Counted from the stretch's first letter, positions 9,040 to 62,102 are shown. The stretch: DNA of 62,154 nucleotides from an uncultured Bacteroidales bacterium (GCA_964451605.1 CAYVJA010000007.1:1-62154), one strand, 5' to 3'. Numbers and translations are program-made. The notes: generated from the letters alone by a model not told the origin.

Positions 9040-9040
9040 C

Positions 9041-9901: not shown

Positions 9902-9946
9902 TGAGAAGGATTTATCGCACAAAAGTACACAAACCAACCGAAGATT

Positions 9947-44889: not shown

Positions 44890-44896
44890 CGGAGGG

Positions 44897-44967
44897 AGGT
44901 CTCTGGCGGATTCGAACCGCCGTACACGGTTTTGCAGACCGGCGCCTAGCCACTCGGCCAAGAGACC
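44897..44967 (-). tRNA. tRNA-Cys (GCA)
   Basis: Minus strand: GGTCTCT-TG-GCC..GGC...CTGCAAA anticodon loop...GGCGG-TTCGAAT-CCGCC-AGAGACC-T. Perfect 7-bp acceptor stem. Confidence 0.85.
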
Positions 44968-44982
44968 CTGAATTGGTGACCG

Positions 44983-45341: not shown

Positions 45342-45352
45342 ATATTACATTC

Positions 45353-45781: not shown

Positions 45782-45821
45782 GTTTGATCTTTTGTAGAAA
45801 CGTGCGCAAAGATACCAATGT

Positions 45822-47039: not shown

Positions 47040-47043
47040 GGTA

Positions 47044-48204
47044 TCAGGGATTGGGCAGGAATAGTTCCTCAAGCGCTGCTATAGCCTCTTTTTGAGAACC
47101 TTCCTGCGATGATGCCGAAATGACCTCCTGTGCGAAGGCTACTGTCAGCATATGTCGCGCCTCTTCGCGGCCAATACCCCGCGAACGCAGGTAGAACAGC
47201 GCCTCTTCGCGCAGTTCGCCTGTAGTGGCACCATGGCTGCACTTTACATTATCGGCATAGATCTCCAGTTGTGGACGGCTCCTCATTAATGCAGTGTCTG
47301 AGATGAGCAGGTTGCGGTTTTGCTGATAGGCTTCGGTCTCCTGTGCGCCGGGTGCCACCAGGATTCTTCCGCAGAAAGTTCCGGTTGATTTATCGGCCAA
47401 AATTGATTTAAACAGTTGTAAGCTATGGCATTTTGGCGCCATATGACACATGTTTATGTGGTTGTCGGAATGCTGCTCGTCTTGCCCCAGCGATAGTCCG
47501 AAGGCTTCGTGCGATCCCCTCTCACCGGCGAGAATCACCTTGAGGTTGTTTCGGAGTTTCTTTGCATTCAGCGAGAACCCGACAGTTTTAACCTGACTGT
47601 TTGCAGCCTGATGGATGATGGTGTGCGATAACACCCACTCTTTCGGATTGTTAAACTTCCATGCAATCTCCAGATTGGCATCCTCTTCCACATAAATCTC
47701 GGTGAAGAGGTGTTTGCTGTGTGTGTAATCGACCATAATCCTGCAATCGGCAGCACGTCCCACAAAAATCTGACGGTAGGCTACTTCGGGATTCTCTTTC
47801 CCGGCGCCGATATGCAGAGCCGAATCACCATTGAACCCCGACGGAATCTCGATCCAGCTTCCCTGATTTACCTGTTGCCAAAAGAGATTCTGGTATCCAT
47901 CTTCTGTTTCGGCCAATGCTCCGGCCGGCCGGCTGTTCGGTCCGGGTTGCCGGCTTACACTCACCGACGGAGGGGCACTGATGATATCCATTCGCATGAG
48001 GCGGGATACCGGTTGCGGATCGGAGGCAAATTCAGAAAGCAGGTTGGTTTCACGATAGAACTCCTCATCGGGAGAGGGGAGTCCGTTCGCAAGAAGTATG
48101 GCCCGGCTCTTTTGCCGGATTTCTATAAACGGGTCGCCGGAATGCTCTGTCTGCAATCTCTTCAAAATCCATTCCGGCAGAAGGGGTTGGCTTTCAGGCT
48201 TCAT
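47044..48204 (-). CDS. sufD: Fe-S cluster assembly protein SufD
   Basis: Positioned between sufC and sufS, with a C-terminal beta-helix region typical of SufB/D (LISDTALMRSRPQLEIYADNVKCSHGATTG). Confidence 0.85.
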   Translation of the reverse strand: MKPESQPLLPEWILKRLQTEHSGDPFIEIRQKSRAILLANGLPSPDEEFYRETNLLSEFASDPQPVSRLMRMDIISAPPSVSVSRQPGPNSRPAGALAETEDGYQNLFWQQVNQGSWIEIPSGFNGDSALHIGAGKENPEVAYRQIFVGRAADCRIMVDYTHSKHLFTEIYVEEDANLEIAWKFNNPKEWVLSHTIIHQAANSQVKTVGFSLNAKKLRNNLKVILAGERGSHEAFGLSLGQDEQHSDNHINMCHMAPKCHSLQLFKSILADKSTGTFCGRILVAPGAQETEAYQQNRNLLISDTALMRSRPQLEIYADNVKCSHGATTGELREEALFYLRSRGIGREEARHMLTVAFAQEVISASSQEGSQKEAIAALEELFLPNP

Positions 48205-48952
48205 AATCGTTGTTCTTTATCCAGTCGTATCCTTGTTCTTCGAGCTTGAGAGCCAAATCTTTATCTCCGCTGATGGCAATTTTTCCGTCTATCAGCACAT
48301 GAACAAAATCGGGAACAATGTAATCGAGGAGTCTTTGGTAGTGCGTGATAACAATGGTGCTGGTTGTGGCCGATTTCAACCGGTTAACCCCTCCGGCAAC
48401 AATCCGGAGCGCATCAATGTCGAGACCGCTGTCGGTTTCATCAAGAATCGAGAGCCGGGGTTCCAGCATAGCCATCTGAAAAATTTCGTTCTTTTTCTTT
48501 TCTCCTCCCGAGAAACCTTCATTGACAGCACGATTGATCAGTTTTTGATCGATTTCGACAAATTTCATCTTTTCGCGCATCATTTTCAGAAAGTCGCCTG
48601 CCGAGAGGGCCTCAAGACCTTGGTAGGTACGACGTTCATTTACGGCTGCCCGCATAAAGTTGGCCATGCTCACTCCGGGAATTTCGACCGGGTATTGAAA
48701 ACTGAGAAAAATACCCATGCGGGCTCTCTCTTCGGGAGCCAACTCCAACAGATCCCTTCCTTCGAATTGTACCTCTCCCTGTGTTACCTGATACATCTCC
48801 CTTCCCGTAAGAATGGAGGCAAGGGTGCTTTTTCCCGATCCGTTCGGGCCCATTATGGCGTGTACTTCGCCGGGTTTTATGGTAAGATTGATACCCTTCA
48901 GAATGGGCTTGTCGTTGATCTGCGCATGCAGATTCTTAATGGTCAATAACAT
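48194..48952 (-). CDS. sufC: Fe-S cluster assembly ATPase SufC
   Basis: Walker A GPNGSGKST, signature FSGGEKK, Walker B LSILDETDSGLD. Confidence 0.95.
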   Translation of the reverse strand: MLLTIKNLHAQINDKPILKGINLTIKPGEVHAIMGPNGSGKSTLASILTGREMYQVTQGEVQFEGRDLLELAPEERARMGIFLSFQYPVEIPGVSMANFMRAAVNERRTYQGLEALSAGDFLKMMREKMKFVEIDQKLINRAVNEGFSGGEKKKNEIFQMAMLEPRLSILDETDSGLDIDALRIVAGGVNRLKSATTSTIVITHYQRLLDYIVPDFVHVLIDGKIAISGDKDLALKLEEQGYDWIKNNDYEA

Positions 48953-48970
48953 GTTCGATAATTTAACGGT

Positions 48971-50434
48971 TTAACCCACACTTCCTTCAAGGCTGATCTG
49001 TAATAGTTTTTGCGCTTCTATGGCAAATTCCATGGGCAGTTGGTTCAACACTTCACGGGCATACCCGTTAACTATCAAACCAACGGCATTTTCGGTATCG
49101 ATTCCTCTCTGGTTGCAATAAAAAATCTGGTCTTCACCAATCTTCGATGTGGTGGCTTCGTGTTCTACCACGGCCGAGGAGTTGGCAATATCTATATAGG
49201 GAAAGGTATGTGCGCCACACTTGTCGCCCAGGAGAAGGCTGTCGCATTGCGAATAGTTTCGCGCATTTTCGGCCCCCTTCATGATTTTTACCATACCCCG
49301 GTAGCTGTTTTGGCTGTTGCCTGCCGAGATTCCCTTCGAGACAATCCGGCTTCGGGTGTTTTTCCCCAGGTGAATCATCTTGGTTCCGGTATCGGCCTGC
49401 TGATGATGACGAGTCAGCGCCACTGAGTAAAATTCGCTCGAAGAGTTGTCGCCCTTAAGAATGGTGCTGGGATATTTCCATGTGATGGCTGACCCGGTTT
49501 CTACCTGTGTCCAGGAGATTTTCGAATCGTTTCCCTTACAGATGCCCCTTTTGGTTACAAAGTTATAGATGCCTCCTTTCCCCTCTTTATCACCCGGATA
49601 CCAATTCTGAACGGTGGAGTATTTTACCTCTGCCCGGGCCATGGCCACTATCTCTACTACGGCTGCATGAAGCTGATTTTCGTCACGACGTGGGGCTGTG
49701 CATCCCTCCAGATAACTCACATAGCTTCCCTCTTCGGCAATAATAAGGGTTCGTTCGAACTGGCCCGTTCCTGCTGCATTGATTCGGAAATAGGTAGAGA
49801 GTTCCATGGGACATCTTACCCCTTTGGGAATATAGCAGAACGATCCGTCGCTGAATACTGCCGAGTTCAGGGCAGCAAAGAAGTTATCACCATGAGGGAC
49901 CACCGAACCCAGATAGGTTTTTATCAAATCGGGGTAGTCGCGGATGGCTTCACTCATGGAGCAGAAGATAATACCCTTCTCGGCAAGTGTTTCACGGAAA
50001 GTGGTTTTCACCGACGAACTATCCATTACGGCGTCTATGGCAACCCCTTTTACCCCTGCCAGCAATTTCTGCTCTTCGAGGGGTATCCCCAACTTATCGA
50101 AAGTGGCTTTTAACTCCGGATCAACCTCGTTCAGATCCTGATATTTGGGGTCTCTTTTGGGCGCTGAATAGTATATGATATCCTGAAAGTCGATTTCGGG
50201 CAATTGGAGATGTGCCCATTTGGGCATCTTCATGGTTTGCCATTTCCGGAAGGCGCGCAACCGGTATTCCAGCATATATTCCGGTTCCTGTTTTATCGAA
50301 GAGATGAGGCGCACAGTCTCTTCGCTCAATCCTTTGGGTATCGATTCGTTTTCGACATTTGTGGTAAACCCGAATTCGTACTCTTTGTTTGTCAGATTGT
50401 CGAGGAGCTCGTCTTGTGTATAGGACTCTTTCAT
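48971..50434 (-). CDS. sufB: Fe-S cluster assembly scaffold SufB
   Basis: 487 aa with a highly conserved SufB core ([31 protein letters not shown]). Confidence 0.95.
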
Positions 50435-50480
50435 GTGTCAGGTCAAAATAGAGGCTGCGGCACTGGTGCTTGCCGCGGCA

Positions 50481-50488
50481 CAAAAGTA
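50481..50488 (-). promoter_or_regulatory. putative -7 box (TACTTTTG on the minus strand) for sufB
   Basis: Plus strand reads CAAAAGTA, 46 nt upstream of sufB ATG 50434. Confidence 0.3.
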
Positions 50489-50499
50489 TATAAATCGTA

Positions 50500-51417
50500 C
50501 TATCCCCCCGAATTTTCGGGTTCGTGATCTAGCAACAGCGGGTCGATATTCGTCATATTCCTAAAACAGAATTTGTCTTCAACCAGTTTTACCTGCCGAG
50601 GAAACTCCAGTTTCCGTATTCTGATTGTTCTTGCGTTCAGGTAGATGGGTTTGTCTGTAATCCCCTCGCACACCACTTTGAAATATTTTACGATATCCTG
50701 TGTACAAAAGGCAGTCACGCTGGTAAAATAGGCATCTACCTGACACTGTTTCGAGAAGGCCACCAACTCCTCGGCCGGAATGGCTTTACCTAAGTAGATA
50801 GGACGTTGTCCACACTTGGTAATCAGGAATTTAAAGAAAAGTCCGCCCATCTCACGATACTCTCCTTCAGGAAGAAATATGGCTATTTTCTTTGCGTCGG
50901 GCTGTGTTGATACGGGGAGCCCGTCGATAGCCACGCACAGCCGCTGCCGTATGAGATTGGAGATAAACTGTTCGTGTGGAGTCAGAATGGATCCGGTTTG
51001 CCAAAGCACCCCTATTTTATCGACCAGAGGGAGTATGATACGAATCATTGCATCGACCAGTCCGTACTGAAGAAGTGCTTTCGAGAAGATTCTGTCGAAA
51101 TGGGCTTCATCAAACTGCAACATCGCGTCCATAAACTGATCCATCTGGATTTGAATATCAGAGTGGAGCTCAATGAGATTCATCACATGTTCGCTCAACT
51201 CGTCTTCATTCATGGCTGCAATCTTCGAGATTTTGTAGCCGTTTTTATAGAGCATGGCCACCCGCATCAATTTTTTCAGATCATTTCCTGAATAGATCCG
51301 GATATTCGAATCGGAACGCGCCGGTTCGAGGAGGTTGTATCGCTGCTCCCACATGCGTAGGGTATGTGCCATAATCCCCGACAGGTCGGACAGATTTTTT
51401 ATGGAGTATTCGGCCAT
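50500..51417 (-). CDS. MerR-family regulator with CarH/LitR-like B12-binding-type C-terminal domains (His ligand not evident)
   Basis: N-terminal MerR HTH (YSIKNLSDLSGIMAHTLRMWEQRYNLLEPARSDSNIRIYS). The middle helical module has VLWQTGSILTPHEQF. The C-terminal Rossmann-like module KKIAIFLPEGEYREMGG has Arg where the DxHxxG His would sit. Confidence 0.65.
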   Translation of the reverse strand: MAEYSIKNLSDLSGIMAHTLRMWEQRYNLLEPARSDSNIRIYSGNDLKKLMRVAMLYKNGYKISKIAAMNEDELSEHVMNLIELHSDIQIQMDQFMDAMLQFDEAHFDRIFSKALLQYGLVDAMIRIILPLVDKIGVLWQTGSILTPHEQFISNLIRQRLCVAIDGLPVSTQPDAKKIAIFLPEGEYREMGGLFFKFLITKCGQRPIYLGKAIPAEELVAFSKQCQVDAYFTSVTAFCTQDIVKYFKVVCEGITDKPIYLNARTIRIRKLEFPRQVKLVEDKFCFRNMTNIDPLLLDHEPENSGG

Positions 51418-51518: not shown

Positions 51519-52184
51519 CTAAACTGAATTATTCATTTGTTTTCTTATTAGGTAGATTCCGTCGCGAAGAGGCAGCATCAACTTCTCCACCCGGTTATCG
51601 GATCGGACTCTCTCATTGAACCGGGCGATTCCTTGTGAGGAGCGGTCGGCCGCAGGTTTGCCCTTGTAAGCACCATGCCACAGCACATTGTCGGCAATAA
51701 TAAGACCTCCCGGCTCTAATTTTTCCATAATTGCCTCATAGTAATCGCAATAGAGGCTTTTGTCGGCGTCAATAAAGGCTAGATTAACCCGGCAGGTCAG
51801 TTCGGGCAACCGCTTTAGGGCATCGCCCGTGAAGACTGTAATCTGTTTGGCAAGAGGGCTTTTGGCAATCTCTTCGCGCGCCATCAGCGCATTCTCGGGA
51901 TTCACCTCGAAGGTGTATAGCATGCCGTCGGGAGCCAATCCTTCTGCCAGGCAGAGGGCTGAGTATCCGGTAAAGGTGCCTATTTCAATTACATTGCGGG
52001 GGCGGATTAGTTTACTCAACATGCTGAGGAATCGTCCCTGCAGGTGACCGGAGACCATTTCCGGCTGGGGTCGTTGAAGATGGGTAATCCGGTAGAGGTT
52101 GTACAGTACTTCCGGTTCGGGATCGCTCTGTTGCAGCAGGAACTCCTCAAGTTCGCGGGTTGTACTGTGGGAAAAATCGGCCAT
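51519..52184 (-). CDS. class I SAM-dependent O-methyltransferase (caffeoyl-CoA OMT / YrrM-like)
   Basis: VIEIGTFTGYSALCLA SAM motif, FIDADK, and ADNVLW blocks. Confidence 0.75.
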   Translation of the reverse strand: MADFSHSTTRELEEFLLQQSDPEPEVLYNLYRITHLQRPQPEMVSGHLQGRFLSMLSKLIRPRNVIEIGTFTGYSALCLAEGLAPDGMLYTFEVNPENALMAREEIAKSPLAKQITVFTGDALKRLPELTCRVNLAFIDADKSLYCDYYEAIMEKLEPGGLIIADNVLWHGAYKGKPAADRSSQGIARFNERVRSDNRVEKLMLPLRDGIYLIRKQMNNSV

Positions 52185-52196
52185 GATGGCAAAATA

Positions 52197-53417
52197 TCAG
52201 GAGTAGGTTAACATAAACAGACGAGCGGGCGAGATAATCTCGTTGGCAATTTCGCGCAACTCGGTGGCCGATACAAGTTCTATTTTTTTGAATACCTCTT
52301 CAAGAGGTTCTACCCTATCGTAAAGCAAAAAGCTTTTGCCATAGCTCATCATGCGGGCTTCATCGCTTTCGGAAGCAATTGCCATTTGGCCTATGAGCTG
52401 CATTTTGGCTTTATGCAGTTGTAGCGTTCCCAGCGGCTTTTCGCACAAGGCAGTCAGCTCTTTTTGTGTAAGGGTAAGGCTTTTGTCAAGCGTGCTTCGA
52501 TCGGTTCCAAAGTATATGGTAAATATTCCGGTATCGACAAAGGGGGTGTAGGAGGCCTCAACATTGTAGGCGAGTCCTCTCTTTTCGCGCAGAATCATAT
52601 TGAGCCTTGCCGTCATACCGTTTCCGCCCAATAAATTAGTAAGGAGGAAAAGACCTGACCTTTGCGGGTTATTCAGGCTGTAGGCAGTGTTTCCCAGGAT
52701 GGTATGGGTTTGGTGCGTTTTTTTCGAAATGACTTGTTGAACGGCAGACCCGGCTGAAAAGGGGAGCCGTTGTGAAGTTCCGGTTGTGGAGGGGAAATGC
52801 CCCAAATACTTTGCGGCCCAGTGACAGATACGCGAAAAGGGAAGCGCGCCTGCGGTAGCTATCACCATCCGGTTGGTGGTGTAGTGTGCTTCCATGAATC
52901 GGAGAATATCTTTTCGTTGCAGACGAAGCAAGCTTTTTCGGGTCCCCAGGATATTTCGCCCCAGCGGATGTCCGGAAAATACCAGATCCTCAAAATCGTC
53001 GAAAATGCGTTCGGAGGGGGTGTCTTTGTAAGAGTTTATCTCTTCCAGAATAACCTCTCTCTCACTTTGCAGCGCTTTCTCCGAGAAGGTCGATTGAAAC
53101 ATCAGATCACTGAGTAACTCAATGGCTCTCTCGCAGTGTGCCTTCAGAAAAGAGCAGTGGATACAGGTTTCTTCTTTAGTGGTAAAGGCGTTTATCTCGC
53201 CTCCCACATCCTCCATCCGGCTGAGTATATGGAATGCTTTCCGTTTATGGGTTCCTTTAAATAGGAGATGCTCAATGAAATGAGCTATGCCTGCCTCGTT
53301 CTCGGTCTCATCGCGCGACCCGGTGTTAATATAAAAGGCACAATGAGCCACGGGCGATTGTGTCTCCTGATGAATGAGCCGGATGCCGTTTGGAAGGGTA
53401 AAAGTCTGAAAGGTCAT
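52197..53417 (-). CDS. M16-family (pitrilysin/insulinase) zinc peptidase
   Basis: Inverted zinc motif HFIEHLLFKG (HxxEH), from ATG 53417. Confidence 0.85.
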   Translation of the reverse strand: MTFQTFTLPNGIRLIHQETQSPVAHCAFYINTGSRDETENEAGIAHFIEHLLFKGTHKRKAFHILSRMEDVGGEINAFTTKEETCIHCSFLKAHCERAIELLSDLMFQSTFSEKALQSEREVILEEINSYKDTPSERIFDDFEDLVFSGHPLGRNILGTRKSLLRLQRKDILRFMEAHYTTNRMVIATAGALPFSRICHWAAKYLGHFPSTTGTSQRLPFSAGSAVQQVISKKTHQTHTILGNTAYSLNNPQRSGLFLLTNLLGGNGMTARLNMILREKRGLAYNVEASYTPFVDTGIFTIYFGTDRSTLDKSLTLTQKELTALCEKPLGTLQLHKAKMQLIGQMAIASESDEARMMSYGKSFLLYDRVEPLEEVFKKIELVSATELREIANEIISPARLFMLTYS

Positions 53418-53473
53418 GAGAACTGAATGTTCGGGCAAATTTACTCAATTTTCGCCCGAAAATCACAAAACCG

Positions 53474-53504
53474 TTTGGGGGAACCGAGAAAACCTCTATA
53501 TTTG
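53474..53504 (+). promoter_or_regulatory. putative Bacteroidota sigma-A promoter for tRNA-Phe
   Basis: TTTG at 53474-53477 and TATATTTG at 53497-53504, with 19 nt between them. The tRNA starts 16 nt downstream. Confidence 0.5.
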
Positions 53505-53519
53505 CACCTCGAAAATGAG

Positions 53520-53592
<73 letters not shown>

Positions 53593-53616
53593 CCTTCAAA
53601 GGGCCTGAAAACCCGC

Positions 53617-53650
53617 AAGATCCCCGAGCAGACGATGTCTCGGGGATCTT
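53617..53650. terminator. hairpin terminator between tRNA-Phe and the convergent Hdr-like operon
   Basis: AAGATCCCCGAG-CAGACGATGT-CTCGGGGATCTT followed by TGTTT on the plus strand. Confidence 0.65.
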
Positions 53651-53665
53651 TGTTTATCTCCGGAT

Positions 53666-54733
53666 TTATAAACATTTCAGATGCAGTGGGGCTGTCGGGC
53701 GACCCAAATCTAAGCCGTAGGCATCGCAGTATTTCTCTTCGGGATTATAGGAGATTCCCAGCTGATTCAGCAGAGATTCTACCGAAACCTGATGGACTTG
53801 CAGACCTATATCCCAGGGATTATATCCCAGCAATAAGCCGGCCAGCTCTTCGAAAGTGAGAACAGGAATTCCATATCCGTCGCGGCCATAGGTTTTCTGC
53901 TCCATTTCGGCAATGGTATATTGCCATCTGTCCAGAAAGAAGGCGCATCCGGGACAGTTGGCAATAATCAAGTCGGGATGAAAGGGCTCCATTGAGTCGA
54001 ACTTTAATTTGGAGTTTCCCACGGAATAGCCCCTGTTAGATTTCAGCAGATATTGTCGAAACCCAAAGCCACAACAGTGGCGTCGTTCGGGATAATCTAT
54101 CTGTTTCCCGCCCCACGTGTCAACCAGTCCGCTTAAAACCGACGGATACTCGGCACCCCCAATCCCCTCTTCAGGGAAAATTTTTGCATAATGGCATCCC
54201 ACATGGTCGACCACACCCAGGGGCTCGCCTCTGTTTTTGTCGATTAGCCTGAATTGGGCTTTTTCTGCAATCTCTTTCCTGAATTTGTAGATCAAATCGC
54301 TACTGTGCACCAGGTTATCCGGGATTTCAAAGGTCATGCCTGTTGCTCTCTTCAAGCTTTGGCGCGTCTTCTCCTCCAGTTCGGGAAAATGCTTCCAGGT
54401 TTCCAGAATCTCTTTATAGATCCCGAAGGAGGTGACGCAGGAGCAGACAAAATTTTTGCAGCCTGCCTGATTCATTAGGGCAAACTGTCTGGCCACTACT
54501 GTCATAGTGGTTTCGAAGGGGATGATTCCGGAATGGTAGGCTATTCCGGTACATGAGGTCTGGCGCTCATCATCGAAAATATCCTTTCCCAGATTATCCC
54601 GCATAATTTTCAGAAAGAGCTCCTCTGCTGCAGGGAAGAAGTTCTGCCGTATACAACTTCGGGCAAAGTAGAAGTGGTTATCGGCTATCTCTTTCTGGTA
54701 CGCTTTCCACTTAGGGTTCTCGGTAAGCTTCAT
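53666..54733 (-). CDS. HdrB-like CCG-domain (cysteine-rich) protein
   Basis: Two cysteine-rich CCG-type repeats. The second carries the canonical RRHCCGFG plus NCPGC, while the first reads TSCTG. 355 aa. It follows an HdrC-like gene. Confidence 0.65.
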   Translation of the reverse strand: MKLTENPKWKAYQKEIADNHFYFARSCIRQNFFPAAEELFLKIMRDNLGKDIFDDERQTSCTGIAYHSGIIPFETTMTVVARQFALMNQAGCKNFVCSCVTSFGIYKEILETWKHFPELEEKTRQSLKRATGMTFEIPDNLVHSSDLIYKFRKEIAEKAQFRLIDKNRGEPLGVVDHVGCHYAKIFPEEGIGGAEYPSVLSGLVDTWGGKQIDYPERRHCCGFGFRQYLLKSNRGYSVGNSKLKFDSMEPFHPDLIIANCPGCAFFLDRWQYTIAEMEQKTYGRDGYGIPVLTFEELAGLLLGYNPWDIGLQVHQVSVESLLNQLGISYNPEEKYCDAYGLDLGRPTAPLHLKCL

Positions 54734-54758
54734 GGATACACATGGATTTATAGCACTC

Positions 54759-55430
54759 CTAACTGTTTTCTAACTGATCCAGATAGGCCTCAACTGAGAG
54801 ACCTGACTCCTTTGCCTTTTGGGCAGTGAGTCGTTCCATCTCTCTGAAGCGTTCGGCCGCACCCGTCTCCTCGAAGATTCGCTTCAAATCGGATAACGAA
54901 CGCTCGGGAATCTGTCGAAGCCCTCCTTTTTCCTCTTGTTTGTAGTGCGATCCCAACCGACTCAGCAGTTTTTGGCGGTTTTCCCGCATCCAATCCCAGA
55001 CAGGCCCTTGTTCCGGGTATCGTGACGTATCAATCTCATCGATATAGACACAATAACCGTATTCCAGGATATGTTTGCCTATGGTACTCCTAAGAGCCAG
55101 TTGCTTCCGTCCCTGCGGGCTCTCCATGAAGTAACCTGTCTCCATGGATAAATTGCGGAGTGCCTGCACAATATAGCCGGGTGTATTTCCTCTGGGACAA
55201 CGTGTTTTGCACGAAAGACACTCTCCGCAGAACCATATAGTATCGCCCTTCAGCAATTGCTCAATCTCTTTTTCGTTCCCCTGTTGAACCGTGTCGATAA
55301 TCTGGCGTGGGTCGTAGTCGCACATGGCCGCAGCAGGGCAGATGGCAGTACACACTCCGCAGTTAATACAGGCTTTAAGCCCTTCAACTACCCTGACATC
55401 GTTGTGTAACATTTCTACTAAGGATTTCAT
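54759..55430 (-). CDS. HdrC-like 2x[4Fe-4S] ferredoxin-domain protein
   Basis: CINCGVCTAICP and CGECLSCKTRCP motifs. 223 aa. Confidence 0.7.
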   Translation of the reverse strand: MKSLVEMLHNDVRVVEGLKACINCGVCTAICPAAAMCDYDPRQIIDTVQQGNEKEIEQLLKGDTIWFCGECLSCKTRCPRGNTPGYIVQALRNLSMETGYFMESPQGRKQLALRSTIGKHILEYGYCVYIDEIDTSRYPEQGPVWDWMRENRQKLLSRLGSHYKQEEKGGLRQIPERSLSDLKRIFEETGAAERFREMERLTAQKAKESGLSVEAYLDQLENS

Positions 55431-55453
55431 GACTTCCTTATTTCAACTTCCCT

Positions 55454-55894
55454 TTATTCATGAATCAGGTCGTATACCCATCCGGCTGTGTCGCCAACTA
55501 TCTGCCTGCAGATGATTTTATGGTGTTTCCGTTCGGATACATCCGCTTCGGAAGCAAACTTTTTCAATAGTTCGCCGCAATTAGTTGTGCCGTGTTGTAA
55601 CTCGACTATCCCATTTAACTCTCTGACTTTTTTATAGGCATAGAGTTTTTTCTCCATCTCTTCGGGAAGAGTGTTCCCGTATTTTAGCCCCAATACCATA
55701 AAACCTCCGGTAACAGCCCCGCACTTTTCTCGTAGCCGTCCCATCCCGCCACCAAAGGTCGAAGCAACTCGCTTCGCCAGGGTTTCGTCGAGATCAAGCT
55801 GTTTTGCAAAGGTGAGCAGTACCGATTGTGAGCAGGCATATCCCTGGTCGAAAAATGCCTGAGCCTTCTCTATGGCCTCGTCTCTTGTCATCAT
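55454..55894 (-). CDS. C_GCAxxG_C_C-family putative redox-active protein
   Basis: GYACSQSVLLTFA, KCGAVTGG, and later Cys residues in NCGELL and ICRQ. 146 aa. ATGA overlap with the upstream ATPase gene. Confidence 0.75.
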   Translation of the reverse strand: MMTRDEAIEKAQAFFDQGYACSQSVLLTFAKQLDLDETLAKRVASTFGGGMGRLREKCGAVTGGFMVLGLKYGNTLPEEMEKKLYAYKKVRELNGIVELQHGTTNCGELLKKFASEADVSERKHHKIICRQIVGDTAGWVYDLIHE

Positions 55895-56808
55895 GATTTT
55901 CTATTTTTTATTGTTTTCTCTAACAGCGTTTTCCATATGCTTTTGGTCACGTGGGCGGGTTCTGATTCCGGATCCCATTCTACGATACTTTGGCAGTGAA
56001 TCATCGCCTCTACAATCTTCTCACTAAAGGGAATTTTTCCAAGCACTTCAATGCCTTTATCGAAGCACCATGCCTCGATTTGTCTGCTTACTGCCGGATT
56101 CAGATCGTATTTATTAATTACCAGATAGCTTGGTATGTTAAAGTTTTCAGTCAGTTCCAGCATCCTTTTTACATCATGCAGGCCCGATTGGGAAGGTTCT
56201 GTTACGGCCACAACCACTGTAGTTCCGGCAATCGACGCTATGGCCGGACATCCTGTCCCCGGAGGTCCATCGATTAGGATGATCTCGCTGTCGGATTCTG
56301 CTGCTACTTTTCGAGCCACTTCTCTTACTACGCTAACCAATCGGCCGGAATTTTCCTCGCCCGGAGCCAGTCTGGCATGGACAAGTGTCCCATTCCGATA
56401 ATTTCCTATATACCACCGACTTTTCTGGTTAGGAAGCATGGCTATTGCTTGTTCGGGGCAGATTCTTGCACAGAGTTTGCATCCATCGCAAACAATCTCA
56501 TCAATCCAAACCCGCTCTTCTTTCACCGAAATGGCGTCGAATCGGCAATAGGTGGTACAGAGTTGACAATGGGTACATAACGTATAATCAATTTCTGCTC
56601 TGTGACCTGATATAAATGGCTCTGCAATATAGTTTTCCGGTTGAAGAATCAGGTGAAGGTTGGCTGCATCGACATCGCAGTCTGCGACTGTCCGTTTCGG
56701 CCCGATTGTTGAAAAGGCTGCGCTGAGACTGGTTTTTCCTGTCCCTCCCTTTCCGCTCATAATGGCGATTTCCACTGCTTTGTGTTTCTCCTGTTTGCTT
56801 GCCATCAT
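55891..56808 (-). CDS. MinD/ParA-superfamily P-loop ATPase with an inserted double 4Fe-4S ferredoxin module (copy 2)
   Basis: Deviant Walker A SGKGGTGKTS, CTHCQLCTTYC and CDGCKLCARIC motifs. Its start abuts the stop of copy 1. Confidence 0.75.
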   Translation of the reverse strand: MMASKQEKHKAVEIAIMSGKGGTGKTSLSAAFSTIGPKRTVADCDVDAANLHLILQPENYIAEPFISGHRAEIDYTLCTHCQLCTTYCRFDAISVKEERVWIDEIVCDGCKLCARICPEQAIAMLPNQKSRWYIGNYRNGTLVHARLAPGEENSGRLVSVVREVARKVAAESDSEIILIDGPPGTGCPAIASIAGTTVVVAVTEPSQSGLHDVKRMLELTENFNIPSYLVINKYDLNPAVSRQIEAWCFDKGIEVLGKIPFSEKIVEAMIHCQSIVEWDPESEPAHVTKSIWKTLLEKTIKNRKS

Positions 56809-57681
56809 TCAACAGTCATTATCAATCTGATTGTATGTTTCGCAGATTTTTTGGTAGAGTTGAAGGAATGTGCTGCGATACTTCCGATTTTTCTCTGCTA
56901 CGACTCCTCCTTCCGCATAGATGCGGGCAATTTCCCGATCCATGGGAATCTCCGCCAGAAGCGTAATCTGTTCGGTTTCCAGATATTGGTAAACATCCCT
57001 GTTCCCCAGGCCGGCCCGGTTGATAATCACGCCAAAGGGTTTGCCAAGTTCTTTTAAGGTATCGACCGATAACTTCAGGTCGTGAAGACCAAATGGTGTA
57101 GGTTCGGTTACCAAAACTACATAGTCGGACTTACTAACCGTGGCAATAAAAGGACAAGAGATCCCCGGTGGAGAATCAAGCAGGGTAAACTCCTTTCCTT
57201 CCGCTTCTCGAATGGCTCTTTTGATAACCGAAACGGGCGAAGCAACGCCCACTTCTGTGCAACCGGTAACCACCAACGCATGACTATTCATCCAGTTGTG
57301 GCTAACAGTTCCAACCTTTTTCTCTTTTTCGGTAATCGCGTCGGATGTACAAACTGTAACACAAGCTCCGCAATCGTGGCATAAACTCTCTACTACTTGT
57401 ATGTATTGATTGTCGGGCAAATAGAAAATGGCGTTGTAGTTGCAGTATTCGAAACATTTTCCACACCAGATGCATTTGTCCGGATCAATATGCGGGACAT
57501 GTTGTGTTACTTCTATCGTATCGGAGGGTTCACCCGACAAGAACTCCCCCACATTGGGCTCTTCTGCATCGCAATCGACCAGGGTAACCGGAATTTGCCT
57601 GTTCTGGAGTGTCCAAAACAGATTGGTGGCAACCAGGGTCTTGCCGGTACCTCCTTTCCCGCTGGCAATAGCAATAATCAT
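56809..57681 (-). CDS. MinD/ParA-superfamily P-loop ATPase with an inserted double 4Fe-4S ferredoxin module (copy 1)
   Basis: MIIAIASGKGGTGKT, CIWCGKCFEYC and CHDCGACVTVC motifs. Confidence 0.75.
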   Translation of the reverse strand: MIIAIASGKGGTGKTLVATNLFWTLQNRQIPVTLVDCDAEEPNVGEFLSGEPSDTIEVTQHVPHIDPDKCIWCGKCFEYCNYNAIFYLPDNQYIQVVESLCHDCGACVTVCTSDAITEKEKKVGTVSHNWMNSHALVVTGCTEVGVASPVSVIKRAIREAEGKEFTLLDSPPGISCPFIATVSKSDYVVLVTEPTPFGLHDLKLSVDTLKELGKPFGVIINRAGLGNRDVYQYLETEQITLLAEIPMDREIARIYAEGGVVAEKNRKYRSTFLQLYQKICETYNQIDNDC

Positions 57682-57694
57682 GAGGGAATCTGGC

Positions 57695-58030
57695 TTAATG
57701 GTCGCACAGGTTGTTTCCTGTTTCTAATTTTTGGTTCAGAAAGTCGGCCACCAGCTCTTCGGCCGGTTTGGGTCTGGCGCCGATTGATACCTCAATCTTT
57801 TGGGCCGAGAAGAGATCGAGAGCACGCTGACCTATTCCACCGGCAATGATGTGCGTAATTCCCTTTTCTGCCAACCATCCGGGCAACAACCCCGGTTCGT
57901 GAGGCGGCGGAGTAAGTAATGTGGTTCCGGTAATTTTTTCATTATCTACCTCAATCACTGCAAATTGTTCGCAGTGACCAAAGTGTGAACAGAGTCGTCC
58001 TCCTTCTAAGGGAATGGCAATTTTTTTCAT
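57695..58030 (-). CDS. NifX/NifB-C-terminal-type (dinitrogenase FeMo-cofactor-binding fold) small protein, copy 2
   Basis: From ATG 58030: MKKIAIPLEGGRLCSHFGHCEQFAVIEVD...GITHIIAGGIGQRALDLF. The track extension to 58174 overlaps copy 1. Confidence 0.65.
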   Translation of the reverse strand: MKKIAIPLEGGRLCSHFGHCEQFAVIEVDNEKITGTTLLTPPPHEPGLLPGWLAEKGITHIIAGGIGQRALDLFSAQKIEVSIGARPKPAEELVADFLNQKLETGNNLCDH

Positions 58031-58058
58031 TCGGTTAAGTTTTGGTTTAGCGGGAAAA

Positions 58059-58385
58059 TTATCGGGAATGATGATCCAGCATGGCAATGATCTGTTCAAT
58101 TCGCTTTTCCGGGTCGTGTAACATAACCATCTGGATTTGCAGGCTATCGAAGAGTGCCTTGATCTTTGCTCCAAACTCGCAGGAGATAACCTTCTTTACC
58201 TCTTTCGAGGCCACCAGTTGTACCGATGCCGGACCTGCGCCTTCCATACTCTCTTTATTGGGGTTGGGCACGAATTCCATGGCCCGGCTCTCGGTGTCGT
58301 AAATCACAAAGAAGTTGCAGCGTCCAAATCTGCAATCCAATTGTGCCTCGGGGCTATTCCCCGTCGATGTGATAGCTACTTTCAT
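58059..58385 (-). CDS. NifX/NifB-C-terminal-type small protein, copy 1
   Basis: MKVAITSTGNSPEAQLDCRFGRCNFFVIYDTES...VKKVISCEFGAKIKALF. 108 aa. Confidence 0.65.
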   Translation of the reverse strand: MKVAITSTGNSPEAQLDCRFGRCNFFVIYDTESRAMEFVPNPNKESMEGAGPASVQLVASKEVKKVISCEFGAKIKALFDSLQIQMVMLHDPEKRIEQIIAMLDHHSR

Positions 58386-58465
58386 GGAGTTTTATTTTAT
58401 TGTAACTGTGATGTTCGTTGCTTCGCTGTTTTTTTAAACGGGTTTATTCTGCCATAATACGACCA

Positions 58466-58897
58466 TTACAATGTGGGATGTTGCGTTGTGGCCTCCGATT
58501 GATATCGGACCACATTCGACGATCCGCACAATGCGCATGAGCTCACCTCGGTGGTTCGCTCCGGATGGTTGAACCAACATCCGCAGTGGTTGCAGGCGTA
58601 CCACTCGCTGTCGAAGTATACTTTTCCGCCCTCAAACAGTAGCGGCTTTCCTATTACCATTGCCTGAGCCAATTTTCGTCTGGCACTTTCGTAGATTCGT
58701 GTGTAGGTGGGCCTGGATACCTCCATCACAGCAGCAGCCTCTACCTGCCCCAACAATTCATAATCACTCAGCCGGATCGATTCGTACTCTTCGAAGTTCA
58801 TGACCACTGGAGAGTGTGGTTGATCCATTCCAATAGGATTGAATCCTCTGTAATGGGGAGGATTCTTCACTTTTCTGATGCGTTTGGGTCGAGCCAT
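58466..58897 (-). CDS. DUF134 (UPF0251) putative DNA-binding protein with a C-terminal CxxC...CxxC zinc-ribbon-like tail
   Basis: From ATG 58897: MARPKRIRKVKNPPHYRGFNPIG...EEYESIRLSDYELLGQVEAAAVMEVSRPTYTRIYESARRKLAQAM (sigma-70 region-4-like HTH), then CNHCGC...CALCGS. Confidence 0.75.
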   Translation of the reverse strand: MARPKRIRKVKNPPHYRGFNPIGMDQPHSPVVMNFEEYESIRLSDYELLGQVEAAAVMEVSRPTYTRIYESARRKLAQAMVIGKPLLFEGGKVYFDSEWYACNHCGCWFNHPERTTEVSSCALCGSSNVVRYQSEATTQHPTL

Positions 58898-58924
58898 AGC
58901 TGTGTTATGATCAAATGTTCGATA

Positions 58925-58932
58925 CAAAGGTA
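58925..58932 (-). promoter_or_regulatory. putative -7 box (TACCTTTG on the minus strand) for the DUF134-led operon
   Basis: Plus strand reads CAAAGGTA, 27 nt upstream of ATG 58897. Confidence 0.35.
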
Positions 58933-58974
58933 ATGAACATATGATAAAGTTTGAAGTTTTTTCCTATTTTTGTA

Positions 58975-58982
58975 AGGAATCT
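58975..58982 (+). promoter_or_regulatory. putative -7 box (TATTTTTG) for the divergent lipoprotein gene
   Basis: TAnnTTTG match 47 nt upstream of ATG 59030. Confidence 0.3.
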
Positions 58983-59029
58983 CCGGGCTTCTCCGGGGAG
59001 GTCTGCTTCTCTCACACACACATTTCCTG

Positions 59030-59665
59030 ATGAAACAGCTCCTTTTGCTCCTTTTTACCCTTTGTATTGGCGCCTGCACTTCGCCCAAGACCCCTGTGAA
59101 TGAGCTTCCGAAAGGCGCATTGTTCGATGGGAACTCCTTTGGCTCCTGGCGCCCTGTTCCCTTCGGGGGAGAGGCTACCCCTTATATTGACAGCGGCTGT
59201 ATGGTGTTGCCCATGGCTACGGCCGGTACGCTTACCGGTGTGCGGTATGAGGGGCCGGATACCTTGCCTGATAAGGATTACGAATTGCGCTTCGAAGCAA
59301 GGAGAATCAACGGACATGACTTTTTTGCCGGAGCCACTTTTCCCGTCGGGGGTTCGCATCTTACGCTTATCATGGGTGGATGGGGCGGCAGCGTCTGTGG
59401 GTTATCGAATATCGACGATTTGGATGCAGCTCAGAATGAGACACGATTTGTCTTTCCTTTTGCCAACCAGGTATGGTATGCTGTCAGGATCAGGGTTACT
59501 GCCCAAAAGGTAGAGGCCTGGTTCGATGATAAACAGGTGGTCGATTTTGTTACTACAGATCGCAAGCTCAACTTACGCCAGGAGGTGGTTCAAACGGCCC
59601 CCTGGGGTTTTTGTACCTTTCTTACAACGGGGGCAATTCGGAATATCGTGCTTTCACCCCTCTGA
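59030..59665 (+). CDS. secreted lipoprotein with concanavalin/LamG-like (DUF1080-like) jelly-roll domain
   Basis: Lipobox LFTLCIGAC, beta-rich sequence with the DYELRFEARRING..., WYAVRIRV..VEAWFDDKQV pattern. The family call is tentative. Confidence 0.45.
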   Translation: MKQLLLLLFTLCIGACTSPKTPVNELPKGALFDGNSFGSWRPVPFGGEATPYIDSGCMVLPMATAGTLTGVRYEGPDTLPDKDYELRFEARRINGHDFFAGATFPVGGSHLTLIMGGWGGSVCGLSNIDDLDAAQNETRFVFPFANQVWYAVRIRVTAQKVEAWFDDKQVVDFVTTDRKLNLRQEVVQTAPWGFCTFLTTGAIRNIVLSPL

Positions 59666-59673
59666 TTTTTGCC

Positions 59674-60552
59674 TTATTTTTGTTCCTGCAACGGTTTAAA
59701 GCCATCGCCCAATACTTCGGTTGCCTCCATAATTGATACAAAGGCCTCCGGATCGATCTCTCTTATATAGGTGTGTAAGATGGGTAATTCGCGTCTTGAG
59801 ATGTTGGTGAAGATCACCTTGCTCGGTTCGCCCTTGTACATCCCTTCGCCATGCAGGTAGGTGCCTCCTCTTCCCATATCGTGCAGGATACGCTCCCGGA
59901 TTTCCCCATGTTTCTTCGATATGATAAACACTGCCTTTTGATACTCCATACCCTCCAGTACCCCATCGATCACCTTTCCTGTTATGAAGATTACTATCCA
60001 GGAGTAGAGGGGTATCTTCCAGTCGCCAAACGCTGCCAGTCCAATTAGAACAATGGTAGAATCCACATAAACCAGAAGTTTACCCACCGATATCCGGGTA
60101 TACTTAGCCAGAATCATGGCTACAATATCGGTTCCGCCGGAGGTGCCTTTGGCCCTGAATACAATGCCCAGCCCCAACCCTATCAGAAAACCGCCGAAGA
60201 TAGCCGACAATAGCGCATCGCCCGGAACCAAAGGCGCATCGCCCCAAAGTGCCGAAAGCATATCGACAAAGATGGCTGTTGAGACGAATCCCACAATGGT
60301 TTTAGCCCCAAAGCGGGGTCCAAGGATTTTTATGCCCAGAATAGCCAAAGGAATGTCCATACATAACGAAACCAACCCGATGGGTGTTCCCAGCAGGTGA
60401 TGCAACACGATGGATATCCCGTAGACTCCTCCCGGAGCAAATTTGTAGGGCGAGATAAAAAATACCAGTGCAACAGCCACAATAAAGGTGCCTGCCAGCA
60501 CTCCGGCATAGTTAAGGATACCGGTTTTAGAGAAGAATTTTTCGGTGCGCAT
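59674..60552 (-). CDS. YitT-family membrane protein (with C-terminal DUF2179-like domain)
   Basis: Five or six TM helices with GGVYGISI and GTSGGTDI blocks, and a soluble C-terminal domain. Confidence 0.65.
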   Translation of the reverse strand: MRTEKFFSKTGILNYAGVLAGTFIVAVALVFFISPYKFAPGGVYGISIVLHHLLGTPIGLVSLCMDIPLAILGIKILGPRFGAKTIVGFVSTAIFVDMLSALWGDAPLVPGDALLSAIFGGFLIGLGLGIVFRAKGTSGGTDIVAMILAKYTRISVGKLLVYVDSTIVLIGLAAFGDWKIPLYSWIVIFITGKVIDGVLEGMEYQKAVFIISKKHGEIRERILHDMGRGGTYLHGEGMYKGEPSKVIFTNISRRELPILHTYIREIDPEAFVSIMEATEVLGDGFKPLQEQK

Positions 60553-60589
60553 AATCCAAACAATTAGGTATTGGGCATCTGGAGCGATG

Positions 60590-60597
60590 CAAAGGTA
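60590..60597 (-). promoter_or_regulatory. putative -7 box (TACCTTTG on the minus strand) for the YitT-family gene
   Basis: Plus strand reads CAAAGGTA, 37 nt upstream of ATG 60552. Confidence 0.3.
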
Positions 60598-60605
60598 CGG
60601 TTTTA

Positions 60606-60654
60606 ATGCTCTAGTGCTCTAATGCTCTAGTGCTCTAGTGCTGCGCTTCGCGCG
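60606..60654 (+). repeat. longest copy of the RTGCTCTA octamer / GCGCTTCGCGC intergenic repeat
   Basis: ATGCTCTA GTGCTCTA ATGCTCTA GTGCTCTA GTGCT GCGCTTCGCGCG. Confidence 0.85.
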
Positions 60655-60707
60655 AATAAAAAATGGGTCGACAAACTTATTTTGTCGAAGAGGCAGTTAT
60701 CTCCAAG

Positions 60708-62102
60708 TAGGGAGCCTGTACAAAATTTTGTGTAAACGGATAGCTGCTGTTTATTGAACGTCTCCACATCGGTCACCGAATTTAATCAAAAATTGATTCA
60801 TAAGCAGGCCCCAATGCTGGAGGGGTCTGGACCATTTCTTTTCTATGTTTTTAATTGCCAGGTATACAGCTTTTTGTGCTGACAAGTCATCCGGGAATAC
60901 TGTTTTTACTTTGGTATATTTTCGGATGGTAGCGTTCATGCTTTCGATCGCATTGGTGGTGTAAATGAGTTTTCGTATCTCCAGCGGAAAGTCATAATAG
61001 GCTGTAAGTTCTGCCCAGTTATTCTGCCAGGATTTAACCGCATATCCGTATTTGTCGCCCCATTTATTGGCAAAGGTCTCTAAGGCATCGTGAGCTGCTT
61101 GCTCATTAACCGCCCCATAAACGCTCTTTAAATCCGCGATGAATGCTCTGCGATCTTTCCACACTACATATCGGGAACAGTTTCGTATTTGATGCACTAT
61201 ACATAATTGGGCTGTGGTCTGAGGGAATGAAGCCTGGATGGCCTGTTGGATGCCGGTAAGGTTGTCTGTGCAGGTTATCAGAATATCCTTGACGCCACGA
61301 GCCTTGATGTCCGTCAACACATTCAGCCAGAAGGAGGCACTTTCAGTCTCATGAATCCACATACCTAACACCTCCTTATATCCCTCATTACTCAAGCCAA
61401 TCATCAAATAGATGGTCTTGTTGAGTATCCGCCCATTTTGGCGGATCTTAAAAACAATCCCATCCATCCAAACTACAAAATATACCGGATCCAGAGGCCG
61501 CTGTTGCCATTCTTTGATATCTTCCAGTACCGCATTAGTGATGTTGGATATAGAGCCTTCACTCACATCAATACCATACATCTCCCGAATGGTCTCCTCT
61601 ATATCCCGAACGGTCATACCTCGGGAATACATGGTGATAATAGCCTGTTCTATCTTGGCTGACATCCGTTGATGTTTGGGTACAATCACCGGTTCGAACG
61701 TGGCATTACGGTCTCTGGGAACATCAAGCGGTATCTCTCCCAAATTGGTCTTGAGCGTCTTTTCGCTGTAGCCATTGCGGCTATTTCCGCTGTTTTTGCC
61801 CGATGGATCATACTTGGAATAACCCAAATGTTCGTCAATTTCTGCCTTCAAAAAGGTCTGAATACCATGCTTGTAGAGTTCCTGAAAATAATCATCGAAC
61901 TCCTTGTGGGTTTTGATCTTACGGAGAGCTTCCTCCGGGATCTTGAAAAGTTCGTCATCTTTCATAATGCTGTTAATGAAGTTAAATGTAAATAAATTAC
62001 TACATTCATTCGCCCCCTGAGCCCTTTAGTGGCTCCAGGGCGAATGATAACCAGAGTTAACAGCTATCTGATCATTTACACAAAATTCTTTACACCCCCT
62101 TA
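60708..62102 (-). mobile_element. IS256-family insertion sequence, apparently intact (about 1.4 kb)
   Basis: A single transposase ORF flanked by imperfect terminal inverted repeats. TGTACAAAATTTTGTGTAAA (60717-60736) matches the reverse complement of 62075-62094 (TGTAAAGAATTTTGTGTAAA) at 18 of 20 positions, and GATAGCTG is shared further in. The outer boundaries are approximate. The element is visibly more AT-rich than its flanks. Confidence 0.8.
60751..61965 (-). CDS. IS256-family (MULE/Transposase_mut) DDE transposase
   Basis: 404 aa with VVWMDG, ITCTDNLTG and TTNAIESMNATIRKYTK blocks characteristic of IS256 transposases. Confidence 0.9.
   Translation of the reverse strand: MKDDELFKIPEEALRKIKTHKEFDDYFQELYKHGIQTFLKAEIDEHLGYSKYDPSGKNSGNSRNGYSEKTLKTNLGEIPLDVPRDRNATFEPVIVPKHQRMSAKIEQAIITMYSRGMTVRDIEETIREMYGIDVSEGSISNITNAVLEDIKEWQQRPLDPVYFVVWMDGIVFKIRQNGRILNKTIYLMIGLSNEGYKEVLGMWIHETESASFWLNVLTDIKARGVKDILITCTDNLTGIQQAIQASFPQTTAQLCIVHQIRNCSRYVVWKDRRAFIADLKSVYGAVNEQAAHDALETFANKWGDKYGYAVKSWQNNWAELTAYYDFPLEIRKLIYTTNAIESMNATIRKYTKVKTVFPDDLSAQKAVYLAIKNIEKKWSRPLQHWGLLMNQFLIKFGDRCGDVQ

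Follow-up and report, generated by a model that had tools for sequence, protein, structure and literature searches.

What do eight adjacent genes of iron-sulphur (Fe-S) and thiol families do together in the genome of an uncultured Bacteroidales bacterium? The genes occupy positions 53666-58897 of a 62,154-nucleotide (nt) stretch of DNA (GCA_964451605.1 CAYVJA010000007.1:1-62154), hereafter referred to as the window, and are preceded by a promoter-like box at 58925-58932. An original prediction, made from the sequence alone, had treated them as an operon of families with no experimentally defined role as a set. This last point no longer stands: from their sequences, the first five genes can be read as a counterpart of the orange protein (ORP) gene cluster of Desulfovibrio, for which a protein complex has been purified (PMC6345978). 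We consider it likely that the whole cluster is a compact Bacteroidales ORP gene cluster, which has been extended by a lineage-specific thiol/disulfide redox module.

Composition of the gene cluster

The listing of open reading frames (ORFs) in the window returned eight minus-strand ORFs, and reproduced the gaps that had been predicted between gene 1 (g1) and gene 8 (g8), namely 80, 28, 13, 0, -4, 23 and 25 nt. Separate gene calls on a second contig of the same species (L001) gave the identical eight genes. The Pfam matches of all eight products lay above the curated cut-offs, and the Pfam and NCBIfam profile scans bore out the families to which the genes had been assigned. From the promoter-proximal end, the genes are:

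58466-58897, minus strand: g1, DUF134 protein of 143 amino acids (aa); ATG start, extended by the ORF lister to a TTG at 58927
58059-58385, minus strand: g2, single-domain NifX-like (Nitro_FeMo-Co) protein of 108 aa, of the orange-protein / IssA type
57695-58030, minus strand: g3, single-domain NifX-like protein of 111 aa, stand-alone counterpart of the MrpORP C-terminal domain
56809-57681, minus strand: g4, MinD/ParA-type P-loop ATPase of 290 aa with an inserted 2x[4Fe-4S] ferredoxin domain, Orp3/Orp4-like
55891-56808, minus strand: g5, paralogous MinD/ParA-type ATPase of 305 aa, or 304 when counted from the second Met, into which a 2x[4Fe-4S] domain is inserted
55454-55894, minus strand: g6, C_GCAxxG_C_C family protein of 146 aa, overlapping g5 by 4 nt
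54759-55430, minus strand: g7, HdrC-like 2x[4Fe-4S] protein of 223 aa
53666-54733, minus strand: g8, HdrB-like CCG-domain protein of 355 aa

Similarity of genes 1-5 to the Desulfovibrio ORP system

In D. vulgaris Hildenborough, the ORP proteins are encoded by the operons orp5-orp4-orp3 and orp7-orp8-orp9, and the purified complex contains Orp3, Orp4, Orp5, Orp8 and Orp9 (Pardoux 2019, PMC6345978). Orp3 and Orp4 are mutually similar, each having two [4Fe-4S] ferredoxin motifs and a MinD-like C-terminal helix, while Orp8 is the orange protein, with a single NifX-like domain (PMC6345978). Orp9, also named MrpORP, transfers Fe-S clusters in vitro to Orp3, Orp4 and Orp8, three proteins that co-purify, and its C-terminal domain carries two motifs defined by the authors, CxHFGHCE and a terminal CDH (PMC6345978). 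The expression of the orp genes is confined to very low redox potential (Fievet 2021, PMC8359166). NifX-like domains can carry [3Fe-4S] clusters, a Mo-Cu-S cluster or thioferrate (PMC6345978, PMC5524996).

We read g1-g5 as an ORP cluster because of the MrpORP match and motifs of g3, the match of g2 to a solved orange protein, and the Orp3/Orp4 architecture of g4 and g5. The g3 product aligned with positions 265-365 of the NCBIfam MrpORP model at 126.8 bits (E = 1e-36). It has both MrpORP motifs, CSHFGHCE at residues 14-21 and a terminal CDH at residues 109-111, and its residues C14, H16, H19, C20, H44, C109 and H111 were conserved in 56-60 of 60 homologues. Both g2 and g3 scored above the cut-off of the Pfam Nitro_FeMo-Co family, with 48 and 63.5 bits, respectively. 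In the PDB, g2 matched 1rdu, MTH1175 (1eo1, the second-best match) and the D. gigas ORP 2wfb at E = 3.9e-5. It shares its NifX-like domain (IPR003731) with IssA of Pyrococcus furiosus, a protein which shows that domains of this type are able to store Fe and S and to donate them, and MTH1175 itself has been termed IssA-type (PMC5524996). Both g2 and g3 differ from IssA in that neither has its cationic Gly-rich tail.

The g4 and g5 products each combine CbiA/ParA and Fer4 domains in Pfam, are ~30% identical to each other, and align with MinD structures across the ATPase core. In g4 the P-loop reads GKGGTGKT and the two ferredoxin motifs CIWCGKCFEYC and CHDCGACVTVC; the PDB search returned no solved structure that spans this full architecture. 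The two proteins are probable heterodimer partners. The lead protein, g1, matched DUF134 (PF02001) at 76 bits, against a cut-off of 27. It has a putative helix-turn-helix region at its N-terminus, with sub-threshold matches to Sigma70_r4 and Zn_ribbon, and a C-terminal ribbon of four to five cysteines (C102, C105, C107, C121 and C124) that was conserved among 43 homologues. The PDB sequence search gave no significant match for g1, and its single-sequence AlphaFold2 model was poor (predicted local distance difference test, pLDDT, of 44), therefore no use was made of it.

The likeness between the two systems thus extends to two paralogous MinD-type ATPases with two [4Fe-4S] motifs each, small single-domain NifX-like proteins, an MrpORP-type domain with CxHFGHCE and CDH, a small lead gene outside the complex, and an origin in a strict-anaerobe lineage. 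In the founding work of Fievet in 2011, ORP clusters were reportedly specific to strict anaerobes. The systems also differ. The window has one operon, whereas Desulfovibrio has two divergent ones; the MrpORP domain is free-standing in g3, whereas in Desulfovibrio it is fused to an Mrp/NBP35 ATPase; and the window has a TAnnTTTG promoter with a candidate palindromic operator in place of sigma-54 and the activator OrpR, which is restricted to Deltaproteobacteria according to the authors of the Desulfovibrio work. Lastly, the window has three extra genes, encoding the C_GCAxxG_C_C, HdrC-like and HdrB-like proteins, which to our knowledge do not occur in the Desulfovibrio ORP cluster.

Features of genes 6-8

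The g6 product is a clear member of the C_GCAxxG_C_C family, with 107 bits against a cut-off of 27 for PF09719 and 67 against 47 for TIGR01909. Its close homologues are 68-83% identical, and the cysteines C21, C58, C106 and C129 were invariant among 33 homologues. The AlphaFold2 model is all-alpha, with a pLDDT of 94 and a predicted template modelling score of 0.89. No significant match was obtained for g6, either in the PDB sequence search or when the fold of the model was compared with 350,542 PDB chains (best E = 1.3, template modelling score at most 0.36).

The HdrC-like g7 lies directly upstream of the HdrB-like g8, both being named after subunits of heterodisulfide reductase (Hdr). For g7, a Fer4 dicluster domain was found in Pfam, the NCBIfam HdrC models scored 69-94 bits, all of them under the cut-off, and the best PDB match was HdrC 5odc_C at E = 7e-14. 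For g8, the Pfam CCG score was 31 bits, the PDB match was HdrB 9sfi_C at E = 3e-26, and the HdrB models gave 137 bits against 450 (NF041780) and 106 against 345 (TIGR03288). Compared with the HdrABC complexes of methanogens (5odc, 9sfi, 8rvu), g7 aligns with HdrC and g8 with HdrB from end to end, and the two proteins retain the two ferredoxin motifs of HdrC and the C-terminal five-cysteine CCG site of HdrB (C180, C220, C221, C260 and C263 in g8). They differ in that the N-terminal CCG-type site of g8 (C27, C61, C97/C99) is degenerate, having lost two of its five cysteines through the changes CC to C and CxxC to CVTS, in that ~60 extra residues are present, and in that there is neither HdrA nor another flavoprotein in the cluster or the annotated flanks. 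The organism is not a methanogen, therefore the coenzyme M-coenzyme B heterodisulfide (CoM-S-S-CoB) is not the substrate.

The cysteine signatures that had been claimed were found, with two small details to be amended. The four CxxCxxCxxxC motifs of g4 and g5 and the two of g7 could be read from the translations, whereas the CCG repeats of g8 come down to one true CCG tripeptide (C220-C221-G222), and g2 has a sole conserved cysteine, C23, present in 57/57 homologues.

The HdrB-like family is narrow. Among 1.84 billion proteins, 632 representative clusters were retrieved at E <= 0.001, and the identity of the full-length representatives to g8 drops from 64% to 46% and then to under 40%. The closest relatives of g8 outside Bacteroidales are cyanobacterial, ~46% identical, and orphans with neither HdrC nor ORP neighbours, therefore a link with ORP cannot be extended beyond Bacteroidales. 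These cyanobacterial genes occur in filamentous Phormidium and Planktothrix (L086 8001-9047), where they adjoin a Photo_RC (psbA-like) gene.

Linkage between the ORP and Hdr-like genes

Gene neighbourhoods were compared from three anchors. For the HdrB anchor, one genome per species was scanned with a closer HdrB alignment (A2), the first alignment (A1) being too divergent; at least 592 stretches encode a relative, and the best 80 loci, all from Bacteroidia, were examined. All ORFs of these loci were translated and searched with the window proteins and with accessory proteins from two annotated loci. The g4 anchor was applied to 80 metagenome contigs, and the g6 anchor to look-ups on long contigs. 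The comparison of gene orders covered 170 loci.

A neighbour-joining tree of 90 HdrB-like sequences separated two groups, the clade of the window and a sister clade. At least one of g2-g5 was found within 10 kb in 36/49 loci of the window's clade (28/41 when only loci found via HdrB itself are counted), in contrast to 0/41 loci of the sister clade. A split at 70% identity in place of the tree gave ORP linkage in 27/34 versus 5/48 loci (Fisher p = 2e-10). Both HdrB types can reside in one genome, as seen in L008 and L065. The sister clade belongs to a different cluster, widespread in Bacteroidales (L065 9246-14285, L087 5028-9376, and the 41 loci of the tree), which consists of HdrC-like and HdrB-like genes, a Pyr_redox_2 flavoprotein, a small ferredoxin and an HdrD-like protein with Fer4 and two CCG domains.

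The order of the linked genes varies between loci. With 1-8 for g1-g8, M for Mrp and R for the reductase described below, the observed orders include 12345MR78, 1237845M, 12378R45M, R12345M78 and 2345M6R78, among others, and therefore the linkage is not mere inherited synteny. Among the 170 loci, the exact eight-gene order, for which recurrence had been envisaged, was confined to the window's own species.

The g4 anchor showed how constant the core is. Where at least 4 kb of upstream sequence was available, a g2 gene was present in 38/38 loci and a g3 gene in 37/38; where at least 3 kb lay downstream, the g5 orthologue adjoined that of g4 in 38/38. In 29 loci the downstream sequence extended for at least 6 kb; of these, 22 have Mrp as a separate gene after g5, 14 have a gene resembling coenzyme A (CoA)-disulfide reductase, often with a rhodanese domain, seven have HdrC plus HdrB, and five a C_GCAxxG_C_C homologue. 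From g6, 3/3 look-ups led to the extended locus already reached from g4, and HdrC and HdrB were present in two of the three. The g4 and g6 anchors thus converge on one locus of 15-20 genes. It starts with DUF134, NifX-like, DUF5320 (two or three copies) and NifX-like genes and, optionally, ARMT1-like and CGGC genes; continues with the two MinD-ferredoxin ATPases, optional radical SAM and deformylase-like genes, Mrp, 4HBT and C_GCAxxG_C_C; and ends with the CoA-disulfide reductase, with or without rhodanese, an optional thioredoxin-like gene, HdrC, HdrB and a metallo-beta-lactamase-fold gene. Mrp, the reductase, 4HBT, DUF5320 and the beta-lactamase-fold gene are all absent from the 62-kb window, where queries with CoA-disulfide-reductase-like proteins gave no match, therefore the window holds a stripped-down version of this locus.

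As judged from these neighbourhoods, the orthologous groups of g6-g8 in Bacteroidales were shown to lie almost only inside or beside the predicted ORP loci, and the three genes appear to be a Bacteroidales-specific add-on. The functional coupling of the genes that had been proposed at the outset is thereby backed from three independent anchors. The C_GCAxxG_C_C protein turned out not to be the obligatory Hdr partner that had been supposed: it is an occasional member, and in relatives its gene usually lies between the 4HBT thioesterase and the CoA-disulfide-reductase-like genes and not beside HdrC. A CoA-disulfide reductase with a rhodanese domain reduces CoA persulfide, as described for Npsr (PMC9405070, PMC7969121). 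In the extended locus, a gene of this kind often lies near C_GCAxxG_C_C and HdrC, and by association it points to persulfide or disulfide chemistry.

A candidate operator upstream of the cluster

The upstream regions of 14 g1 orthologues, from the window and 13 other loci, were aligned. The conserved block around the promoter-like -7 box is a 16-bp palindrome, ATGAACAwwTGTTCAT, and two copies of it flank the TAnnTTTG box, usually 26 bp apart from centre to centre, as is the case in the window. The two copies, scored with a position weight matrix (PWM), are:

58933-58948, distal palindrome, minus-strand sequence TTTATCATATGTTCAT: directly upstream of the -7 box; 13.6 bits
58907-58922, proximal palindrome, minus-strand sequence TCGAACATTTGATCAT: between the -7 box and the g1 start; 18.4 bits

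The window contains four PWM matches, against 0.3 expected; the other two, at 12246 and 42059, fall within ORFs and were set aside as chance matches. Across 2.2 Mb from related loci, 149 matches reached at least 13 bits, against ~20 in shuffled sequences, and 88 reached at least 18 bits, against ~0.6. At 15 bits, a site was present at the start of 40/60 DUF134 genes (paralogous copies included), of 19/67 g2 genes (those at the head of the unit or close to the g1 promoter), and of 11/32 beta-lactamase-fold genes; no site was found at the starts of g3, g4, g5, g8 or Mrp. In L025 and L026, HdrC-HdrB and the ORP genes are arranged divergently, and the palindromes occupy the intergenic region that they share.

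We read the palindrome, from its distribution, as a candidate operator of DUF134 proteins, and its position around the -7 box fits promoter occlusion by a repressor. The self-regulation by the lead gene that had been hypothesised gains indirect support from the conserved palindrome at DUF134 promoters.

Strong palindromes also precede DUF5320 paralogues, a PLP enzyme of Cys/Met metabolism, TrmO-like genes, a 259-aa metallo-beta-lactamase-fold gene and a gene for a 292-aa 'MISDYRCVYC' protein; an ARMT1-like-sized gene was also listed. Perfect or near-perfect copies were recorded in L012 (4524), L014 (5460/6658), L016 (18447/19310), L026 (11511), L027 (876), L028 (201), L037 (3863) and others. 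This suggests that the regulon of the palindrome is larger than the ORP operon.

Transcriptional organisation

The features that delimit the predicted transcript, both of which had been expected, are present at the two ends of the cluster:

58925-58932, minus strand: -7 promoter box TAccTTTG of the Bacteroidetes type, 27 nt 5' of the g1 ATG
53617-53650: hairpin, its G+C-rich stem 12-14 bp long, which separates the g8 stop from the convergent tRNA-Phe
53520-53594: tRNA-Phe, convergent with the operon

Taken alone, the TAnnTTTG pattern shows no enrichment over chance in the window (42 matches, with 33.6 expected). Its position, just past the TGTTCAT half-site, is kept in most of the 13 aligned orthologous upstream regions. 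The other minus-strand copies within the cluster are inside g4 and g8, with none in the intergenic gaps. The hairpin has a folding energy of -28.2 kcal/mol (z = -3.24) and is a probable bidirectional terminator. A scan for sigma-70 promoters and terminators, with a model ill-suited to Bacteroidetes promoters, gave counts at or below chance, and an Rfam scan of 52000-61000 at a permissive threshold returned tRNA-Phe with no riboswitch or leader RNA. Given the single promoter-like box at the head, the lack of intergenic boxes, the tight or overlapping junctions and the terminal hairpin, it is plausible that the eight genes form a single compact transcription unit, as had been proposed.

Proposed mechanism and alternative explanations

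Under the reading that we favour, of an ORP cluster extended by a thiol/disulfide module, the eight genes would be transcribed as one unit from the TAccTTTG promoter, which the DUF134 protein would repress by binding to the two flanking ATGAACAwwTGTTCAT-like palindromes, with its conserved C-terminal cysteines perhaps acting as a metal or redox sensor. The g4 and g5 proteins would form an ATP-driven Fe-S heterodimer that works with g2 and g3 and, under strongly reducing conditions, these four proteins may assemble, hold or hand on Fe-S or related metal-sulfide clusters. The HdrCB-like pair would pass electrons through the two cubane clusters of HdrC to the intact CCG site of g8, where the group to be reduced would be a disulfide or a persulfide, carried by the C_GCAxxG_C_C protein or by a CoA-type thiol. 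This reaction might supply or recycle reduced sulfur or thiols for the ORP machinery.

Several points weigh against this reading. The orthology of g1, g4 and g5 to Orp proteins is putative, being assigned from architecture and the MrpORP model, and Orp7 (DVU2107) is presumably a DUF134 protein. No Mrp homologue was found in the 62-kb window, no -24/-12 sigma-54 match upstream of g1, and no OrpR-type activator in the annotated flanks. The palindrome is paired with DUF134 through guilt by association. The g8 protein, with its degenerate N-terminal site, falls so far under the HdrB equivalog cut-off that its substrate cannot be deduced. Lastly, HdrCB occurs in only about a quarter of the Bacteroidales ORP loci (7/29), therefore it is dispensable for core ORP function.

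The same asymmetry bears on the strongest alternative, in which HdrCB is a client: the ORP proteins would be a dedicated maturation machine for HdrCB, whose CCG site requires an unusual non-cubane [4Fe-4S] cluster, and the C_GCAxxG_C_C protein would be the disulfide substrate of HdrCB. In essence, this is the model of the original prediction. ORP genes stand beside most HdrB genes of the window's clade, yet HdrCB stands beside few ORP genes, which is the pattern expected of an optional client, although it also fits the extended ORP cluster that we prefer. The delivery of clusters by MrpORP to ORP proteins in vitro and the intact C-terminal five-cysteine site of g8 are in keeping with maturation. 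However, the sister HdrCB clade has the same CCG site in the same genomes with no ORP neighbours, proteins with CCG domains are generally known to be matured in many organisms that lack ORP genes, and C_GCAxxG_C_C adjoins the CoA-disulfide-reductase-like gene more consistently than HdrC. The data fit a client and a supplier of electrons or sulfur alike. We regard the client role as rather unlikely, while giving it more weight than any other rival.

A broader version of the ORP reading can be put forward tentatively, and we would not expect it to hold in full: the extended locus could be a self-contained, anaerobe-specific route of Fe-S or metal-sulfide assembly or repair, with sulfur drawn from sulfide or persulfide and not from a cysteine desulfurase. 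Speculatively and within the same scheme, the Hdr-like and CoA-reductase-like enzymes might free or recycle sulfur while the ATPases drive assembly on the NifX-like carriers, and the window might represent the minimal eight-gene core of such a route, located beside SUF. If true, this would give ORP systems a function.

A role in cell division, in which the MinD-like ATPases place the septum and the redox proteins only modulate them, was originally suggested for the Desulfovibrio ORP complex. The match of g4 and g5 to MinD structures over the ATPase core agrees with it, as do the polar localisation of MrpORP, the altered cell shape reported after inactivation of the D. vulgaris orp activator, and the annotation of such genes as 'cell division'. 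In the Bacteroidales loci, by contrast, the neighbours are Mrp, NifX-like, thiol and persulfide-reductase-like genes, with no division genes in the Pfam-annotated loci, and the later Desulfovibrio papers treat ORP as Fe-S biology. We consider this role very improbable.

It is equally hard to believe that the ORP cluster and the Hdr-like pair are two unrelated modules, adjacent and co-transcribed with no shared function, a view which was already disfavoured. The uniqueness of the exact gene order to one species, the variable flanking genes and the majority of ORP loci without HdrCB could be taken to favour it; against this, the linkage recurs across dozens of species-level genomes and metagenome contigs despite rearrangement, the paralogous HdrB clade is free of ORP neighbours, and three independent anchors converge on one locus. 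Two further candidates were rejected, namely a methanogen-type energy-conserving Hdr (no HdrA was found in the cluster or the annotated flanks, and the scores are far under the equivalog cut-offs) and a nitrogenase-cofactor role of the NifX/NafY/NifB kind (no nifHDK or nifEN in the 16 kb annotated or in the Pfam-annotated related loci).

Significance of the extended ORP locus

The ORP core is already known, and the operon is that core joined to an Hdr-like redox pair. The literature searched did not yield the extended Bacteroidales locus, the dedicated HdrCB clade with its C_GCAxxG_C_C group, or the palindromic operator, and a full-text search returned no functional reports on DUF134, on C_GCAxxG_C_C, or on NifX-like together with Hdr proteins in Bacteroidetes. 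In Bacteroidales, an order to which gut and sediment anaerobes belong, the predicted ORP core is repeatedly tied to HdrCB-like, C_GCAxxG_C_C, Mrp and CoA persulfide-reductase-like genes, with the whole set behind a conserved candidate operator tied to DUF134 genes. The eight genes of the window are the smallest such operon seen here. They provide a first genomic context for DUF134 and C_GCAxxG_C_C, two families without known function, the latter with a confidently predicted fold and no solved relative. They also offer a candidate pair of regulator and operator, possible redox partners, and a minimal operon that lends itself to heterologous expression. Nothing is overturned by these results; they give a minimal and tractable entry to the roughly fifteen-year-old question of what ORP systems do.

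Flanking genes and variants of the locus

The flanks of the cluster had been described as ordinary housekeeping genes, which overlooks a complete SUF Fe-S assembly operon on the same strand (~45074-51417, minus), beginning ~3.2 kb downstream of g8. Its order, with coordinates converted from L001, is a MerR-type regulator with a B12-binding domain, SufB, SufC, SufD, SufS, a 76-aa ORF and an FeS_assembly_P protein, followed by tRNA-Cys at 44894-44968. The location of SUF beside the cluster suits the Fe-S theme. Elsewhere in the window, a low-GC stretch at 26-28 kb was inspected and holds ordinary genes only.

In most related loci, one to three small DUF5320 genes, rich in Gly, Arg and aromatic residues, lie between the two NifX-like genes (for example L005 1688-1909, L168 1623-2299 and L169 4258-4680). 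Their composition, and this is a likeness of composition only, resembles the cationic thioferrate-binding tail of IssA (PMC5524996). In L004, HdrC and HdrB are separated by a TonB-dependent receptor gene (7742-9949), and another takes the place of HdrC-HdrB in L169 (11648-13852), just before the beta-lactamase-fold gene; the receptor may be a recurrent insertion at the HdrC-HdrB spot.

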